25,936 bases of DNA from a virus. Its lineage: Duplodnaviria > Heunggongvirae > Uroviricota > Caudoviricetes. The number at the start of each line of letters is the position of its first letter. The first letter of the stretch is position 1. The stretch spans positions 1 to 25,936 of the IMG/VR virus record IMGVR_UViG_2778261639_000014; one strand, given 5' to 3'. Below, one piece after another: positions 937 to 18,085 of the stretch. A program made the translations under genes and the position numbers. The notes below the pieces were generated by a model. It had not been told where the DNA came from. It saw nothing but the letters and a program-made list of their open reading frames with translations, and did not search any database.

Positions 937-1213
937 GTTGTAACCCTTGAATATCAACCACAGAAAGCTCGTCTTTGTAGAAAAAGGCTAGGTTGTGGCA
1001 CCCCCTCGTTTGAGCGTATGAGCTGGGACCAATTTCGTTCTTCCAGACAAATGGCTTCAAATCCGTACGGCGAAGCATAAAAACGCGATTTGTTCCGCTC
1101 TGATTCCCAATGAGGCAAAAGCCTTCTTTCACCTTGATAGCCTGCAAGTTGTCGAGTTCACCGCTGGTTACACGGCTATCGAACTCTTTGCGGCTTATTA
1201 GCTCCATCTGCAT
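929..1213 (-). CDS. Hypothetical small protein co-transcribed upstream of rdgC (position of P1 cra)
   Basis: Track ORF 929..1285. Start placed at ATG 1213 (GGAG 9 nt upstream) because the track start abuts the operator at 1285-1301. Stop overlaps the rdgC start by 8 nt. No recognisable domain. Confidence 0.4.
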
Positions 1214-1284
1214 CTGACGACTCCAAACAAATGCCCATCGAAGGGCGATAGCTGAATGGTACCGAAAACACGACATAAAAAACA

Positions 1285-1301
1285 ATATTTATTAGAGCAA
1301 T
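1285..1301. promoter_or_regulatory. C1 repressor operator-like site
   Basis: ATATTTATTAGAGCAAT on the + strand is the reverse complement of the asymmetric P1 C1 operator consensus ATTGCTCTAATAAATTT with one mismatch. Lies in the divergent region between the rdgC operon and the + strand genes. Confidence 0.6.
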
Positions 1302-1381
1302 TATGCAATGGTTGACGCCATGTAGACCACAAGTAACCTAAGTTAAAATAAAGAAAACCAGAGCAAATTATTGGTGATGCC

Positions 1382-1666
1382 GTGGCAAGTATTGCAACAA
1401 AAGACAGCATTTGTTCGGGGCACGGAGGATTCCCATCCAGGCCTCCTGTAGAGAGTGAACCACTACTTAAAGTCAACGGAGTCGAAGTGTTAGTTGATGG
1501 TAAGCAATATGCACAGCATACCGATGGAAACAGTACGCACGGTGGGCAAGCTATATCAACCAGGGCATGGTTTACCGTCAATAGTAAAGGGATCGTATGC
1601 GTTGGTGACCCTGTTTCATGCGGATCTACCGTAGCGTCCGGAGACGGCCTGGTTCAGGTAAGTTAG
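1382..1666 (+). CDS. PAAR-like small protein (possible spike-tip protein)
   Basis: 94-aa ORF with GTG start. Repeated elements SGHGG, VNGVEV, THGG, VNSKGIVCVGDPVSCG resemble PAAR or gp5.4-type repeats. Stop is followed 8 nt later by the next gene with an AGGAG SD. Confidence 0.4.
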   Translation: MASIATKDSICSGHGGFPSRPPVESEPLLKVNGVEVLVDGKQYAQHTDGNSTHGGQAISTRAWFTVNSKGIVCVGDPVSCGSTVASGDGLVQVS

Positions 1667-1674
1667 GAGATATC

Positions 1675-2463
1675 ATGCTGGAAAAAGACTACCAGTTATC
1701 CGCATATAAAAAATTGGCCGCCGCCGGTGGGATGAAAACACCTGGTGCCATAACATCGGCACGAAACTGTGCTAACACAGCAAAACTGCTTGCAGAAGAA
1801 TTGACCGGATTAATTCTGGATACAATTGTCTATCCCGACACTATTACCTGCTATGTTTCAACGATAAGAACAACCACAACCGGCTTAACGAACATTGGAG
1901 AACTGGCAACTAAGCACGCGGACCTGTTGGCTGGTTATGCAGATCTGTCAATGCTGCTTCAACTCGATATTGGTTGGGATGTTTACTGCCGTGCTAATGA
2001 GCGAGAAGTTTCAGAACTGCCGATCTCTATTGCCATTGGTGATGTGAATATTACTAAATCGCTTGAGGACGCTGTTAACGCGCTTAATACATCAAGTTTA
2101 GTCGCTGCTATGGGGGAGATTAACCAGACCCTTAACACTGGCTCAGTAAGCTCGTCAGGCTCTGGTTCAGGCGGCGGCACTGCCACTCCCCCACCAACAC
2201 TAACAGAAGAGCAAATTGAATCTCTGAAAGTAGCAACTGAACAGTTTGGGGTTGTTTTCAACCAGACAACAGCGCCCACAACTGCGTTACAACAGCAGTA
2301 TGAACGAGCGAATGAAAGCGCCAACGTAGCCATAACTGCTTATGGACATGCTATCGGTACCGCGCTTGCGGAAGCATCAGCAAATAAGGCCAGCACAGCC
2401 AGCGCAGTTGCTGCTTTGGTTCCTGATTCTGTTCTTGATGAATTAAACAAAGCGGCACAGTAA
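1675..2463 (+). CDS. Hypothetical protein with low-complexity linker
   Basis: Track ORF 1618..2463; ATG 1675 is preceded by AGGAG. 262 aa with Ser/Gly/Thr/Pro-rich linker (SSSGSGSGGGTATPPPT) and Ala-rich C terminus. No catalytic motif recognised. Confidence 0.55.
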   Translation: MLEKDYQLSAYKKLAAAGGMKTPGAITSARNCANTAKLLAEELTGLILDTIVYPDTITCYVSTIRTTTTGLTNIGELATKHADLLAGYADLSMLLQLDIGWDVYCRANEREVSELPISIAIGDVNITKSLEDAVNALNTSSLVAAMGEINQTLNTGSVSSSGSGSGGGTATPPPTLTEEQIESLKVATEQFGVVFNQTTAPTTALQQQYERANESANVAITAYGHAIGTALAEASANKASTASAVAALVPDSVLDELNKAAQ

Positions 2464-2502
2464 CAAAGGACTTCATTGATAATTTTTCTTCAGGAGGAAG
2501 AC

Positions 2503-2919
2503 ATGTCATTCTTTTCTACGTTAAAAACAGCTTTGTCTTTGAAGGAGAAACTTGCTGCTACTGGTGTTCTTGTTCTGATTTGCGCACTTGTTGGTGCTGG
2601 GTTTGCATGGGAACGTCATCAGCTAAAGCAAGCCATAGAGAAAATTGGCAGTCTTGATCAGGCTGTTAAGGAACGTGATAAGTCAATAATGGATCTTAAC
2701 CAGACCATTGAGACGATGAACAAAGCAGAGCAACATTTTCACAGCCAGGAAGTGAAAAATGAATCAGAGCAAGCCAAGTATGCTGACAGGCAAATGGAAC
2801 GAAAAGCTGAAGTTCAGAAACAACTGGTTGCGGCGGGTAATGTTCGCCAGCGCATTCCTGCTGACACTCAGCGGTTGCTCCGGGAGTCGATCAGCGAATT
2901 TAACGCCGACAAAGGTTAA
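2503..2919 (+). CDS. i-spanin-like membrane protein (position of P1 ppfA)
   Basis: Track ORF 2476..2919; ATG 2503 preceded by AGGAGG. N-terminal transmembrane helix (LAATGVLVLICALVGAGFAW) followed by about 100 aa of charged coiled-coil-like sequence. Confidence 0.5.
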   Translation: MSFFSTLKTALSLKEKLAATGVLVLICALVGAGFAWERHQLKQAIEKIGSLDQAVKERDKSIMDLNQTIETMNKAEQHFHSQEVKNESEQAKYADRQMERKAEVQKQLVAAGNVRQRIPADTQRLLRESISEFNADKG

Positions 2920-3085
2920 CCACCCTGCCCCCAAAAGTGCATTTATGTGCAGGATGCCGGAGTTTAGCAGTGAATATTTTGATGATCTGCCAGCGTATAT
3001 CCTCGATACAGAAACGATGCTGATGGGGATTAACAGGAAGAATCGCAATGTTAATGATTACAACCGCGCTATCAGCGGTAACTAA
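2759..3085 (+). CDS. Lipoprotein overlapping the preceding gene, o-spanin-like (position of P1 mlp)
   Basis: ORF in another frame overlapping the last ~160 nt of the upstream gene. Lipobox L-S-G-C after a hydrophobic stretch (FASAFLLTLSGC). Start uncertain: 2759 has an AGGAAG SD, internal ATGs at 2780 and 2840. Confidence 0.5.
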   Translation: MNQSKPSMLTGKWNEKLKFRNNWLRRVMFASAFLLTLSGCSGSRSANLTPTKVNHPAPKSAFMCRMPEFSSEYFDDLPAYILDTETMLMGINRKNRNVNDYNRAISGN

Positions 3086-3096
3086 AAGGGATTTTT

Positions 3097-3489
3097 ATGT
3101 CTGATAAAGTAACAGTTAAGCAAACTATCAACAAAGCGACTTCAATCTACAAAATTGAGCACATCACTGTTGGCAAGCCAGGATCTGAACAATACCGTCA
3201 TGCTTTCGAGCTTGCCGCTCAGCTTGGTTTAAAACACCCGGATTGCATTGAGCATGTATTTCCGACCTATGCTGATGAGCAATGTACTCATGTTCTTACC
3301 GAAGAGGATTTTTTCAGCACTGAAGAACGAGAAGGCGTTGATCGCTGCATTGGTGTGATTTGCTCTTCAGTGAGTTATGAGTTATTCCCTAATGTCCATG
3401 AAAATGGTGGTATTGGATACCAATTCCTGTACGAAGGCGATGAGCTTAAATGTTATGAACATGGTCTTCTTATCGAAAGCGTAGAATAA
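3097..3489 (+). CDS. Hypothetical protein (position of P1 upfA)
   Basis: 130-aa ORF with AAGGGA SD. Acidic, Cys/His-containing, no recognised domain. Lies immediately upstream of the plasmid origin. Confidence 0.55.
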   Translation: MSDKVTVKQTINKATSIYKIEHITVGKPGSEQYRHAFELAAQLGLKHPDCIEHVFPTYADEQCTHVLTEEDFFSTEEREGVDRCIGVICSSVSYELFPNVHENGGIGYQFLYEGDELKCYEHGLLIESVE

Positions 3490-3502
3490 TACCCTTCCTT
3501 CC

Positions 3503-3528
3503 AACCGGCTATGTTGGCCGGTTTATTC
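3503..3528 (+). terminator. Intrinsic terminator-like hairpin
   Basis: Inverted repeat AACCGGC / GCCGGTT with 7-nt loop followed by TTTATT, starting 14 nt after the upstream stop codon. Confidence 0.45.
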
Positions 3529-3529
3529 A

Positions 3530-3760
3530 ACTTATCCACAGCATAGATCCAATAAACAGATCCCAAAGAGAACCTAGGAAGATCCAAAGAAGATCCCGGA
3601 TCGCTGTAAGCCGCGCCGTTCATGGCCTGAAACGGGATCAACATTGACTATACGCGATTTTATGTTGACTGTGTGCGATTTTATGTTGACTGCACGCGAT
3701 TTATTGTTGACTATACGCGACAGAAACGTTGACTGTACGCGATTTTAGAGCCTGAATATT
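3530..3760. other. Plasmid replication origin (P1 oriR-like)
   Basis: DnaA box TTATCCACA (3532-3540), five GATC sites in AGATCC heptamer-like repeats (3546-3602), then five direct iterons. Same layout as P1 oriR. Confidence 0.8.
3644..3747 (+). repeat. incC-like iteron array (5 direct repeats)
   Basis: Five copies of TTGACT-N4-GCGAT(TT) starting at 3644, 3665, 3686, 3707 and 3729 (21-22 bp period), immediately upstream of repA. Confidence 0.85.
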
Positions 3761-5000: not shown

Positions 5001-5810
5001 ATGCAAGAAGAGAAACAACACTACCTCTACGTTCTGGTGCCGGAGAACGGAGATACTTTTAAAATCGGTATTTCATGTGGTCCATTGGCACGGTTTAAAG
5101 GGCTACAAGTGAGTCCCGATTTTGCGCTTTCACGGGTCTATCGTGGTACGCGTTTGGCAATGGTTAATCTTGAGCGGGCTTTACACGCAACCTTTTTCCC
5201 CTGGAATGCGCCGTGGGAGAAAAGCGCCGGTGGCGGGCATACTGAATGGTTTACACGAGAGTGTCTTGATAAGGTTTTGGCTCATATCGAATATCTAAAT
5301 GATATGTGGGGAGGGATTCTCGAGCGCATTAAGTCGAATGATTTACTTCAGCGTCCAGTAGATGCTGCTCGCTCTTTCGAAAAAGAGTTGGATGTTACTT
5401 CTATCGTGACTTTCAAAGATGACGCAGGAATGAGGGACGTGGCTTATGTCTCCATATCTGGCTATGAACCGGACGCGATCCGCGCTCAATGTGAATTGCT
5501 GAAAGCAGTGTTTATGCTTCGGACTAAATATCCCTGGGAGACAGGGCGGGTGTGCTTCCCTATGGAAGAGTTAACCGCCACCATTGATTCCCAGCTTTAC
5601 CACGATAATCCAGAGAAGTTTTTTAGCCTTTTAGCCGGTAATGGGCTTAACTGTGTGTCCGGGCTGGGGCGAAGTAGAATCCAACATGCCTCGCTCTTCG
5701 GTCCCTTCTTTTACGATCGACACGGGTACTTTGAGACTGAACTTCCGGCGCTTACGCGTGCTATAGATACTATCGATTTCGAACGATTATTCGCTGCTCT
5801 TAGCAAATAA
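5001..5810 (+). CDS. GIY-YIG-like (T5orf172/MUG113-type) domain protein
   Basis: 269 aa. N-terminal pattern YLYVLVPENGDTFKIGIS...R...GGGHTEWF fits the GIY-YIG-like T5orf172 fold. C-terminal ~170 aa unassigned. Has its own terminator. Confidence 0.6.
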   Translation: MQEEKQHYLYVLVPENGDTFKIGISCGPLARFKGLQVSPDFALSRVYRGTRLAMVNLERALHATFFPWNAPWEKSAGGGHTEWFTRECLDKVLAHIEYLNDMWGGILERIKSNDLLQRPVDAARSFEKELDVTSIVTFKDDAGMRDVAYVSISGYEPDAIRAQCELLKAVFMLRTKYPWETGRVCFPMEELTATIDSQLYHDNPEKFFSLLAGNGLNCVSGLGRSRIQHASLFGPFFYDRHGYFETELPALTRAIDTIDFERLFAALSK

Positions 5811-16823: not shown

Positions 16824-17867
16824 TTAACCTATTGCTACTGGTTTTAACAAACCAGCATCAAGTAGCTTGCGAGTTAACCACTGCTGGCCTTTACCCGTTA
16901 ATTGGGGCGTCAGCCGTATCTGGTAGCCATTTTCATCATCCAGCACCACTTCTTTCACCGTGAAATATCCGGCGTTGATGTACTGCTGGCGCGGTACGTT
17001 TTTGCGCGCACCAAAAGCCATGAGAATGCCGTTCTGGCGCAACCATGAGAAAAGGGCGTTTTGCTTAAGTCCAACGACCTTTGCAAAGTTCCCGATCAGG
17101 ATTCCATTAGCCGCTGATACCCGGTCGGCAAAATCGACTTTAGGGGCTGCGGCCACCAGCTGTTGTTCCAACTGCATTTTCTGTTCTGCCAACTCGGCAG
17201 CCAGGCGTAGAGCTTCTGGTAATGTTTGGGGGATCGATGGGGTAGGTGAGTTTGCCTGCTGCAATTCTTCCAGTTTGTCGATCAGCGAACGGCGGACCGC
17301 TTTCGATTCGCGCGCGGCGACTCGCAGGGCTTGTTTGTAGGTCATGGTTATGACCTCAAAAGAGCGCCCGGCCCTTGTGCCATGGGATTTTACGAAAGTT
17401 TCGTAAAATTCCCCATCAAGTTCATCCTTAATTCTATTGAGAAAATCGTTATTGCGGATCTCATTTTCCCTACATAGCTTGCGCGCATCATTAACCATCT
17501 TTAACAGCGTCTGGCTGTCGATTGTGTCTCCAGTGTTGGAGATAACATTCACAGCTGGTGATGGCGTAGCTGAAGCAACAGATGCTGGTTTTTTAACATT
17601 CAAATTATTACTGGTCATTCTATGTGCCTCCTTTCTCATTTCTGCTGCCACCGTTGCGTAACGTAGACGTCCTTGTTCAATCAAATAATCCCTGATCTCG
17701 GCTATCAGTAGCCTGTTGATCACAGCCTTATCTGTTCGGGTATAAAAACGCCTGGTTATCATGAAATAGTTGGCAATTGCGCCGGGGATCTCCCGTGTCG
17801 GCATACAGGCAGTATGCAGGGCGATCGCTTCGGCTATTTCATTACGGGTGACGAGAGGTTTTTTCAT
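16824..17867 (-). CDS. ant: Antirepressor (P1 Ant-like)
   Basis: 347 aa. Central Rha/AntA-like region and C-terminal antirepressor domain shared with KilA. Preceded by an overlapping 73-aa ORF and a C1 operator, as in the P1 immI operon. Confidence 0.8.
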   Translation of the reverse strand: MKKPLVTRNEIAEAIALHTACMPTREIPGAIANYFMITRRFYTRTDKAVINRLLIAEIRDYLIEQGRLRYATVAAEMRKEAHRMTSNNLNVKKPASVASATPSPAVNVISNTGDTIDSQTLLKMVNDARKLCRENEIRNNDFLNRIKDELDGEFYETFVKSHGTRAGRSFEVITMTYKQALRVAARESKAVRRSLIDKLEELQQANSPTPSIPQTLPEALRLAAELAEQKMQLEQQLVAAAPKVDFADRVSAANGILIGNFAKVVGLKQNALFSWLRQNGILMAFGARKNVPRQQYINAGYFTVKEVVLDDENGYQIRLTPQLTGKGQQWLTRKLLDAGLLKPVAIG

Positions 17868-18085
17868 AAAACCCCCTGAACGTCAGCAGAGAAGGGGAGG
17901 TTCCAGTAACTAAGTGAATTGCGCGAGTTAGTAGAAAAACGGGCAGTAAAAATGCAGGGGCCATCAGGCAATTGAGAGCGTGCTTCGTCTTCAGTTGCTG
18001 CGATAACGAAGTGATAGTGGTGTTTTTGGCAGGAGTAAAAGCGCCAGATAAATTCAGGATGAGTAGGGGTAGGGATAGTAGCCAC
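17864..18085 (-). CDS. icd: Icd-like small protein overlapping the ant start
   Basis: 73-aa ORF with GTG start and AGGAGG SD 9 nt upstream; its stop overlaps the ant start. Same size and arrangement as P1 icd as recalled. An alternative 81-aa frame (17842..18087) is also open. Confidence 0.5.
   Translation of the reverse strand: MATIPTPTHPEFIWRFYSCQKHHYHFVIAATEDEARSQLPDGPCIFTARFSTNSRNSLSYWNLPFSADVQGVL

Follow-up and report, generated by a model that had tools for sequence, protein, structure and literature searches.

The two adjacent open reading frames at positions 1382 to 2463 are, judged by sequence identity and gene order, upfC and upfB of a P1-like plasmid prophage. We put at about 85% the probability that they encode a T4 gp5.4-type spike tip protein and a helical protein, UpfB, that decorates this tip, and that both are expressed late. 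The window, that is, the whole stretch of 25,936 nucleotides analysed here, is on the same grounds a P1-like (Punavirus) phage-plasmid: positions 1200..3600 align over their full length with P1, P7, RCS47, SJ46 and vB_EcoM-Ro157c2YLVW at 95–98% nucleotide identity. The subject is already known, as both genes have names, UpfC has been solved in the P1 baseplate and the placement of UpfB on the tip has been published. What we add is minor: a correction to the start of upfB, a candidate for a twelfth late promoter, a conserved linkage of the PAAR gene with upfB and an evolutionary explanation of the position of the pair. The original prediction had proposed a PAAR-like mini-protein tightly coupled to a low-complexity 262-aa protein, possibly the spike tip with a partner, in a location unusual for structural genes.

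The gene order is common to the window and to the annotated records of P1 and RCS47. The minus strand carries hrdC (RdgC-like) and uhr, followed by the C1 operator and promoter Odmt/Pdmt; the plus strand then carries upfC, upfB, ppfA (with the mlp start inside it), upfA, oriR, repA, parA and parB, and the late genes 23, 22 and 21 lie beyond parB. The spike gene, P1 gene 5, is outside the window. Both reading frames are present as originally described: upfC has 94 codons from a GTG start (1382..1666, plus strand), and upfB has 262, beginning with an ATG at 1675 and ending with a TAA at 2461..2463 (1675..2463, plus strand). Three further plus-strand genes were assigned from PHROG matches, the P1 annotation and late RNA-seq kinetics in P1: ppfA (2503..2919), encoding an Rz-like inner-membrane spanin, mlp (2759..3085), which begins within ppfA and encodes an Rz1-like lipoprotein spanin, and upfA (3097..3489). 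A terminator-like hairpin with a T-run (3501..3527, plus strand; consensus scan only), 12 bases 3' of upfA and ahead of oriR, is likely to mark the end of a unit running from upfC to upfA.

UpfC is a PAAR-like protein of the T4 gp5.4 type. It matches chain A of PDB entry 9vyi, the chain named UpfC in a cryo-EM structure of the P1 baseplate, at 92 of 94 residues (E 1e-59), and phmmer searches of the PDB also recover T4 gp5.4 (E 6e-7) and the Vibrio cholerae PAAR protein VCA0105 (E 2.4e-3). The protein belongs with PHROG_281 (E 2e-29). The Pfam PAAR_motif profile (PF05488) matches residues 51–91 only, with an E-value of 3.8e-5 and a score of 24.3 bits that falls under the curated cut-off of 27; a PF05488 match is precomputed for most of the 94-aa UpfC homologues. 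The AlphaFold2 model, made from an alignment of 20 homologues (pLDDT 95.7, pTM 0.84), predicts a compact conical beta fold of ~95 residues. Foldseek aligns this model, each time with a probability of 1.00, with P1 UpfC (9vyi, TM 0.95), T4 gp5.4 (4ku0_D, TM 0.91, rmsd 1.7 Å) and the type VI PAAR proteins 4jiv_D (TM 0.88) and 4jiw_D (TM 0.87). The PAAR assignment, which had been offered as pattern recognition, is thus borne out by profile, sequence and fold. The likeness to gp5.4 was recorded in the 2004 P1 annotation and was noted again by Gonzales et al. 2022 (PMC9024508).

Residues H14, H46, H53 and C80 of UpfC are invariant across the 20 homologues, down to 39% identity. This three-His, one-Cys set agrees with the description of T4 gp5.4, which has an iron site of the same composition that includes H14, and in which H14 is required: the H14A mutant does not bind the spike (PMC12407873). 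A metal site of this kind probably holds the conical UpfC monomer together, and a single such monomer would cap the trimeric beta-helix needle of gp5 at its blunt end. The P1 protein has been located by cryo-EM, in two independent studies, as a monomer on the gp5 trimer (PMC12810830; bioRxiv 2025.07.21.665459). We therefore regard as established what UpfC is, how it folds and where it sits in the virion, the position being that seen by cryo-EM for the 98%-identical P1 protein.

To follow the pair through evolution we compared 11 loci: the window, P1 and nine non-P1 lineages (three Salmonella-type contigs, a metagenomic contig, Photobacterium damselae, Vibrio alginolyticus, Enterobacter kobei, Serratia and phage D6), the nine being searched as six-frame open reading frames. 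All 11 have a UpfC-like gene upstream of upfB and on its strand. In ten the two genes are immediate neighbours, with 0–36 bases from the PAAR stop to the upfB start in the relatives among them; in the Photobacterium locus two open reading frames intervene. The linkage persists at UpfB identities as low as ~20–22%, and this conservation supports a functional pair independently of the cryo-EM fit. In five relatives 0.1–2.1 kb separates the pair from the homologues of genes 23, 22 and 21 downstream, with no replicon between; in the four others a replication module follows the pair, as in P1, and RepA is recognisable in three of them (L087, L088 and L093). Since the pair heads the capsid and sheath genes in these relatives, it is best seen as the edge of the late structural block, with the plasmid module as a variable insertion. 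PAAR-upfB would then be a conserved module at the head of the capsid-sheath block, into which a plasmid replicon has been inserted in some lineages, P1 among them.

The pair does lie beside an operator-controlled region, as the original prediction had remarked. The C1 repressor operator Odmt (formerly Op68; ATTGCTCTAATAAATAT; 1285..1301, minus strand), identical to the annotated P1 operator, is 80 bases upstream of upfC. Together with the assignment of PHROG_281 to the category "moron, auxiliary metabolic gene and host takeover" and the position of the pair next to the plasmid replication module, this operator could suggest that the pair forms an early accessory or moron cassette under C1 repression, with no part in virion structure. 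However, the operator overlaps the -35 element of Pdmt (-35 at 1280..1285, -10 at 1256..1261, minus strand), a divergent promoter that drives uhr-hrdC-dmt and is directed away from upfC, and 27 bases lie between its end and the late-promoter-like site described below. We conclude that it regulates the divergent early operon uhr-hrdC-dmt only, and not the pair.

The timing of expression in P1 points the same way. In an RNA-seq time course of P1vir infection (PMC8201110, Table S1), the log fold changes at 10 and 30 min are 4.86 and 10.63 for upfC and 4.12 and 11.07 for upfB. Their neighbours ppfA (5.57 and 11.25), mlp (4.15 and 10.53) and upfA (5.21 and 11.24) were measured in the same series, as were gene 23 (5.44 and 12.07), gene 22 (4.68 and 11.45) and sit (3.66 and 11.03). 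The flanking early or constitutive genes, on the other hand, are already high at 10 min (uhr 8.62, hrdC 9.40, dmt 8.85, repA 7.37, parA 9.46). The pair rises like genes 23 and 22 and unlike uhr, hrdC and dmt, and is therefore expressed late in P1. The conditions for refutation set in the original prediction thus do not apply: a PAAR profile matches, a conical fold is predicted, and expression in P1 is not early. With UpfC resolved in the P1 baseplate, and with the pair directly upstream of genes 23 and 22 in five relatives that have no replicon between, the early-cassette explanation is contradicted by the present evidence, and we regard it as scarcely credible. Nor is the location as odd for structural genes as had been supposed: the operator serves the divergent operon, the kinetics are late, relatives have the pair in front of the capsid and sheath genes, and the pair has a late-promoter-like site of its own.

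A source for the late transcription can be proposed. The annotated late promoters of P1 have the layout AC-AAGTNACTT-N4-TANNNT, with a 9-bp inverted repeat box near -22, and from ten annotated P1 sites we built a scoring matrix. Positions 1329..1349 of the window (plus strand; ACAAGTAACCTaagtTAAAAT) conform to this layout: AC, as in nine of the ten aligned sites, is followed by the box AAGTAACCT, which has one mismatch to the consensus, the spacer aagt and the -10 element TAAAAT (box to -10, 1331..1349), and the site ends 32 bases before the upfC GTG. Its matrix score of 16.2 is the third highest among ~52,000 positions of the window, after LP23 (8347) and LPpac (21178), the next score below being 13.4, and lies within the range of leave-one-out scores of nine annotated late promoters (13.2–22.1). 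A score of 16.2 is reached somewhere in the ~52,000 positions by 5.5% of shuffled windows; as this figure refers to any position in the window, the chance within one particular 100-base interval is far smaller. A simple consensus scan found no sigma-70-like site on the plus strand of the 168-base intergenic region upstream of upfC.

Relatives carry similar sites. The Salmonella relative L086, whose UpfB is 44% identical, has a perfect box at the same offset from the start codon, the best match in 10.8 kb, and in L087 and L088 the second-best matrix match falls at the same position. For D6 and E. kobei the P1 matrix was uninformative, as their own gene-23 promoters were not clearly recovered either. 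In the P1 reference the site is weaker: its box (AAATAATCT) has three mismatches, and its score of 12.6 ranks 15th in the genome. The third box position varies among 80 close relatives, and the site is not among the 11 late promoters in the very detailed P1 annotation (NC_005856). On balance we lean towards 1329..1349 as a predicted Lpa-type late promoter of upfC. It would head the unit upfC-upfB-ppfA/mlp-upfA and, as a twelfth late promoter, would account for the late expression published for the genes from upfC to upfA. A second, weaker late-promoter-like site (ACAAAGGACTTCATTGATAAT; 2463..2483, plus strand) lies just upstream of ppfA; its score of 13.4 is the fourth highest in the window, and L087 and L088 also match at this position.

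UpfB is an all-alpha protein with three parts: an N-terminal helical domain with an IGWD motif (aa 1–155), a disordered Ser/Gly/Pro linker (GSVSSSGSGSGGGTATPPPT; ~aa 156–177, nt 2140..2205, plus strand) and a C-terminal helical hairpin (aa 178–262). The AlphaFold2 model is all-helical (pLDDT 83, pTM 0.78), and pLDDT falls below 50 in the Ser/Gly/Pro linker only. The earlier description of a low-complexity protein thus holds for the linker, whereas the remainder is Ala/Thr/Leu-rich helix and not of low complexity. UpfB matches PHROG_1559 over its full length (residues 1–262, E 8e-136). The family is small, with 88 clusters at 50% identity among 1.84 billion proteins, and its full-length members, essentially all of 240–265 aa, have the three-part architecture in common and match from residue 1. 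Among deposited phages, tblastn with the distant homologue P0061 as query found UpfB in P1-like records and D6 only, and the Photobacterium homologue gave no match. Otherwise UpfB occurs in plasmids of ~80–140 kb, nearly all predicted to be non-mobilizable, from Escherichia, Salmonella, Citrobacter, Klebsiella, Serratia, Enterobacter, Xenorhabdus, Pantoea, Vibrio and Photobacterium.

Beyond its own family, UpfB has no clear relatives in the collections searched. The best Pfam E-value is only 0.27, with no family and no effector, Rhs or adaptor domain recognised; no PDB sequence is related at E up to 10, and no UpfB chain is deposited there. Foldseek finds nothing at E ≤ 0.001 in the PDB or in BFVD, a collection of predicted viral structures. 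The PDB matches are generic helical bundles only (best E 6.6e-3, TM ≤ 0.28), and the ~240-aa DUF7217 phage proteins found in BFVD (E 0.014–0.03, TM 0.31–0.38) are too weakly similar to be accepted as relatives. No signal peptide-like or membrane-spanning segment was found in UpfB, the maximum 19-residue hydropathy being 1.14.

The two genes are tightly coupled, in line with the original prediction. At the junction (1665..1677, plus strand) an AGGAG Shine-Dalgarno sequence (1665..1669) overlaps the upfC stop TAG (1664..1666) and is separated by five bases from the upfB ATG at 1675. The RefSeq record of P1 gives UpfB a different start, at the ATG equivalent to 1618, which makes the protein 19 residues longer (281 aa) and creates a 49-base overlap with upfC. 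We reject this start because the homologues all begin ML(E/D/N) and are 240–265 aa long, because an in-frame stop lies 3–9 bases ahead of the ATG in L086, L087, L088 and L091, and because the ATG at 1675 has the AGGAG Shine-Dalgarno sequence. On this comparative evidence, we take the 262-aa start to be the correct one.

The idea of a spike tip with a partner has a structural counterpart in P1, where UpfC sits on gp5 and UpfB has been assigned, at medium resolution, to a novel "tripod" on the tip. The tripod was described as three trimers anchored on UpfC (PMC12810830, PLoS Pathog 2026); the map is of medium resolution only, an AlphaFold3 model of the UpfB trimer was fitted into it (PMC12810830). 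A later paper repeats the tip placement, but with three copies of UpfB in place of the three trimers of PMC12810830. UpfB would accordingly be a lineage-specific helical protein, co-translated with UpfC and decorating the tip as the tripod, and on contraction of the sheath it may be carried into the host envelope along with the spike; its stoichiometry, its role and this delivery are inferred.

Alternatively, UpfB might not be a stable component of the virion at all, the tripod being something else and UpfB a late accessory factor, for example a chaperone of tip assembly or an envelope- or lysis-related protein transcribed together with the spanin genes. LC-MS/MS of CsCl-purified P1 virions did not find UpfB among the 27 proteins detected, while the three-copy hub gp6 and the six-copy PmgG were found (PMC9024508), and since UpfB has seven tryptic peptides of 7–25 residues, digestion alone does not explain the miss. 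The inconsistent stoichiometry of a fit to medium-resolution density, the absence of a plaque defect in the upfB deletion and the Rz/Rz1-like spanin genes directly 3' of upfB in P1-type genomes would also suit such a factor. Yet UpfC, gp5, gp26 and PmgA were missed by the same mass spectrometry and are present in the structure (PMC9024508, PMC12810830), and the predicted UpfB trimer is reported to fit density anchored on the tip (PMC12810830). What stays linked to upfB is the PAAR gene and not the spanin genes. Relatives from Enterobacter kobei, Vibrio and Photobacterium have the pair with no recognisable PpfA homologue adjoining, and a capsid gene comes next. The absence of a signal peptide-like or membrane-spanning segment likewise argues against this alternative. 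We consider a non-virion UpfB quite unlikely, and prefer its place on the tip. The peptides TTTTGLTNIGELATK, EVSELPISIAIGDVNITK and ASTASAVAALVPDSVLDELNK of UpfB are suited to targeted mass spectrometry.

Neither gene is needed for plaque formation in the laboratory. P1 deletions of upfC and upfB, as well as CRISPRi knock-downs, give normal plaques and plating (including PMC9024508), and no phenotype of either gene has been reported in the literature. T4 gp5.4 is similarly dispensable for plaques; its loss costs fitness in competition, and it is needed on hosts with truncated LPS (PMC12407873). By analogy, the benefit of UpfC and UpfB is likely to be conditional, lying in fitness or in the infection of hosts with an altered envelope. 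This raises the question of what a helical tripod does on a membrane-piercing tip, and why evolution keeps it when laboratory plaque formation does not require it. One speculative answer, which we hold to be doubtful, is that UpfB is the phage counterpart of the cargo on type VI PAAR tips: a helical protein, perhaps active on membranes, that the spike would bring into the host envelope and that could there help to open or stabilise the passage of DNA or could broaden the host range. If so, the PAAR-UpfB module, which is conserved in phage-plasmids of Enterobacterales and Vibrionaceae alike, would serve as a penetration device in its own right, made of two parts, and not as a decoration.

The PAAR-repeat proteins of type VI secretion systems (VCA0105 and c1882; PDB 4JIV and 4JIW; PF05488) have the fold in common with UpfC (TM 0.87–0.88). 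Like UpfC they sharpen a VgrG/gp5-type spike, and PAAR proteins can carry further proteins on the tip. UpfC differs from them in that it is part of a phage virion, lacks an extension at either terminus and has a Pfam score under the gathering threshold, and UpfB differs from type VI cargo in having no detectable similarity to an effector, an adaptor or a known Pfam family.

A closer parallel is T4 gp5.4 (PDB 4KU0, 5IV5), also a standalone protein of ~95 aa with a conical PAAR fold and the three-His, one-Cys set including H14, which, like P1 UpfC, sits as a monomer on the trimeric gp5 beta-helix and is dispensable for plaques. The identity between UpfC and gp5.4 is, however, only 26–31%, and P1 gp5 is without the lysozyme domain of T4 gp5 (PMC12810830, PMC9024508). 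A counterpart of UpfB is not known from the T4 tip, where a gp5.1 complex is an AlphaFold3 suggestion only. As to transcription, the site at 1329..1349 shares the box, the 4-base spacer, the TANNNT -10 element and the AC with the 11 annotated Lpa-dependent promoters of P1 late genes, such as LP23, LPs and LPsit, while differing from them in being unannotated and in that its Lpa dependence is predicted.

The closest system is phage P1 itself, whose UpfC and UpfB (PDB 9vyi, 9VZK; PMC12810830) are products of the same genes, 98% and ~95% identical to those of the window, with the same neighbours, operator and gene order. The differences are allelic only, such as the two substitutions in UpfC and a late-promoter-like box that is nearer to the consensus in the window than in P1 (AAGTAACCT versus AAATAATCT).

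Database annotation of the PAAR-like spike tip gene upfC and its downstream neighbour upfB contains several errors. Many UpfC homologues in NCBI and UniRef carry the name "alanine racemase", and PHROGs places the PAAR family in the moron/host takeover category. Gene boundaries are affected as well: the RefSeq entry for P1 UpfB (YP_006533.1) probably starts 19 codons too early (window 1618..1674), and the Serratia UpfC homologue is annotated as a 67-aa protein, while the locus contains an intact 94-aa ORF (L093 5717..6001). One 86-aa database protein, P0106, resembles both members of the pair: UpfC at 83% identity across 63% of the query, and the UpfB profile at its C-terminal end. The probable explanation is a gene call, frameshifted or fused, on a short contig.

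The Serratia locus lies on plasmid pJSRIV002_3 of Serratia sp. JSRIV002, a P1-like phage-plasmid, on which a gene (L093 2582..3061) with the annotation Hcp family type VI secretion protein is located approximately 2.7 kb upstream of the PAAR–upfB pair. The local layout of the module differs on Vibrio alginolyticus plasmid NZ_CP135970.1 (L091 2660..5700): the PAAR gene is directly preceded by four hypothetical ORFs on the same strand, and an N-acetylmuramoyl-L-alanine amidase gene is found between upfB and the capsid gene. Using Foldseek, the best BFVD neighbours of the UpfB model are predicted structures of ~240-aa DUF7217 proteins from Pectobacterium phage Wc4 and Serratia phage vB_SmaA_3M, with E-values (0.014–0.03) and TM-scores (0.31–0.38) that are too weak to call. 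These model-based matches could mean that other phages have analogous helical proteins associated with the tip.

A second late-promoter-like site, ACAAAGGACTTCATTGATAAT (2463..2483), scores 13.4 with the matrix built from ten annotated P1 Lpa-dependent late promoters and is positioned immediately 5' of ppfA, an Rz-like spanin gene. Two relatives have matches at the equivalent place (L087 at 5777 and L088 at 5776). The P1 annotation lists only predicted sigma-70 promoters before ppfA.

Sequence comparison with the P1-family phage RCS47 reveals a break in collinearity. The window follows RCS47 72282..53044 as far as position 18055, this first segment finishing in the ant/icd/c4 region, and from 17753 it corresponds to RCS47 104003..96176, a segment that carries pacB, pacA, lpa, pdcB and doc/phd. 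In the window the two matches overlap by approximately 300 bases (17753..18055); in RCS47 the matched segments are ~51 kb apart. Missing between them are c1, coi, lox-cre and sim. The overlap marks the junction of a rearrangement or deletion, or else an assembly chimera.

Finally, the replication and partition region contains a 269-aa ORF (5001..5810) between repA/incA and parA. The P1 reference lacks this ORF: there, the par promoter comes directly after incA. In RCS47, the corresponding position is occupied by a gene of the GIY-YIG nuclease family.
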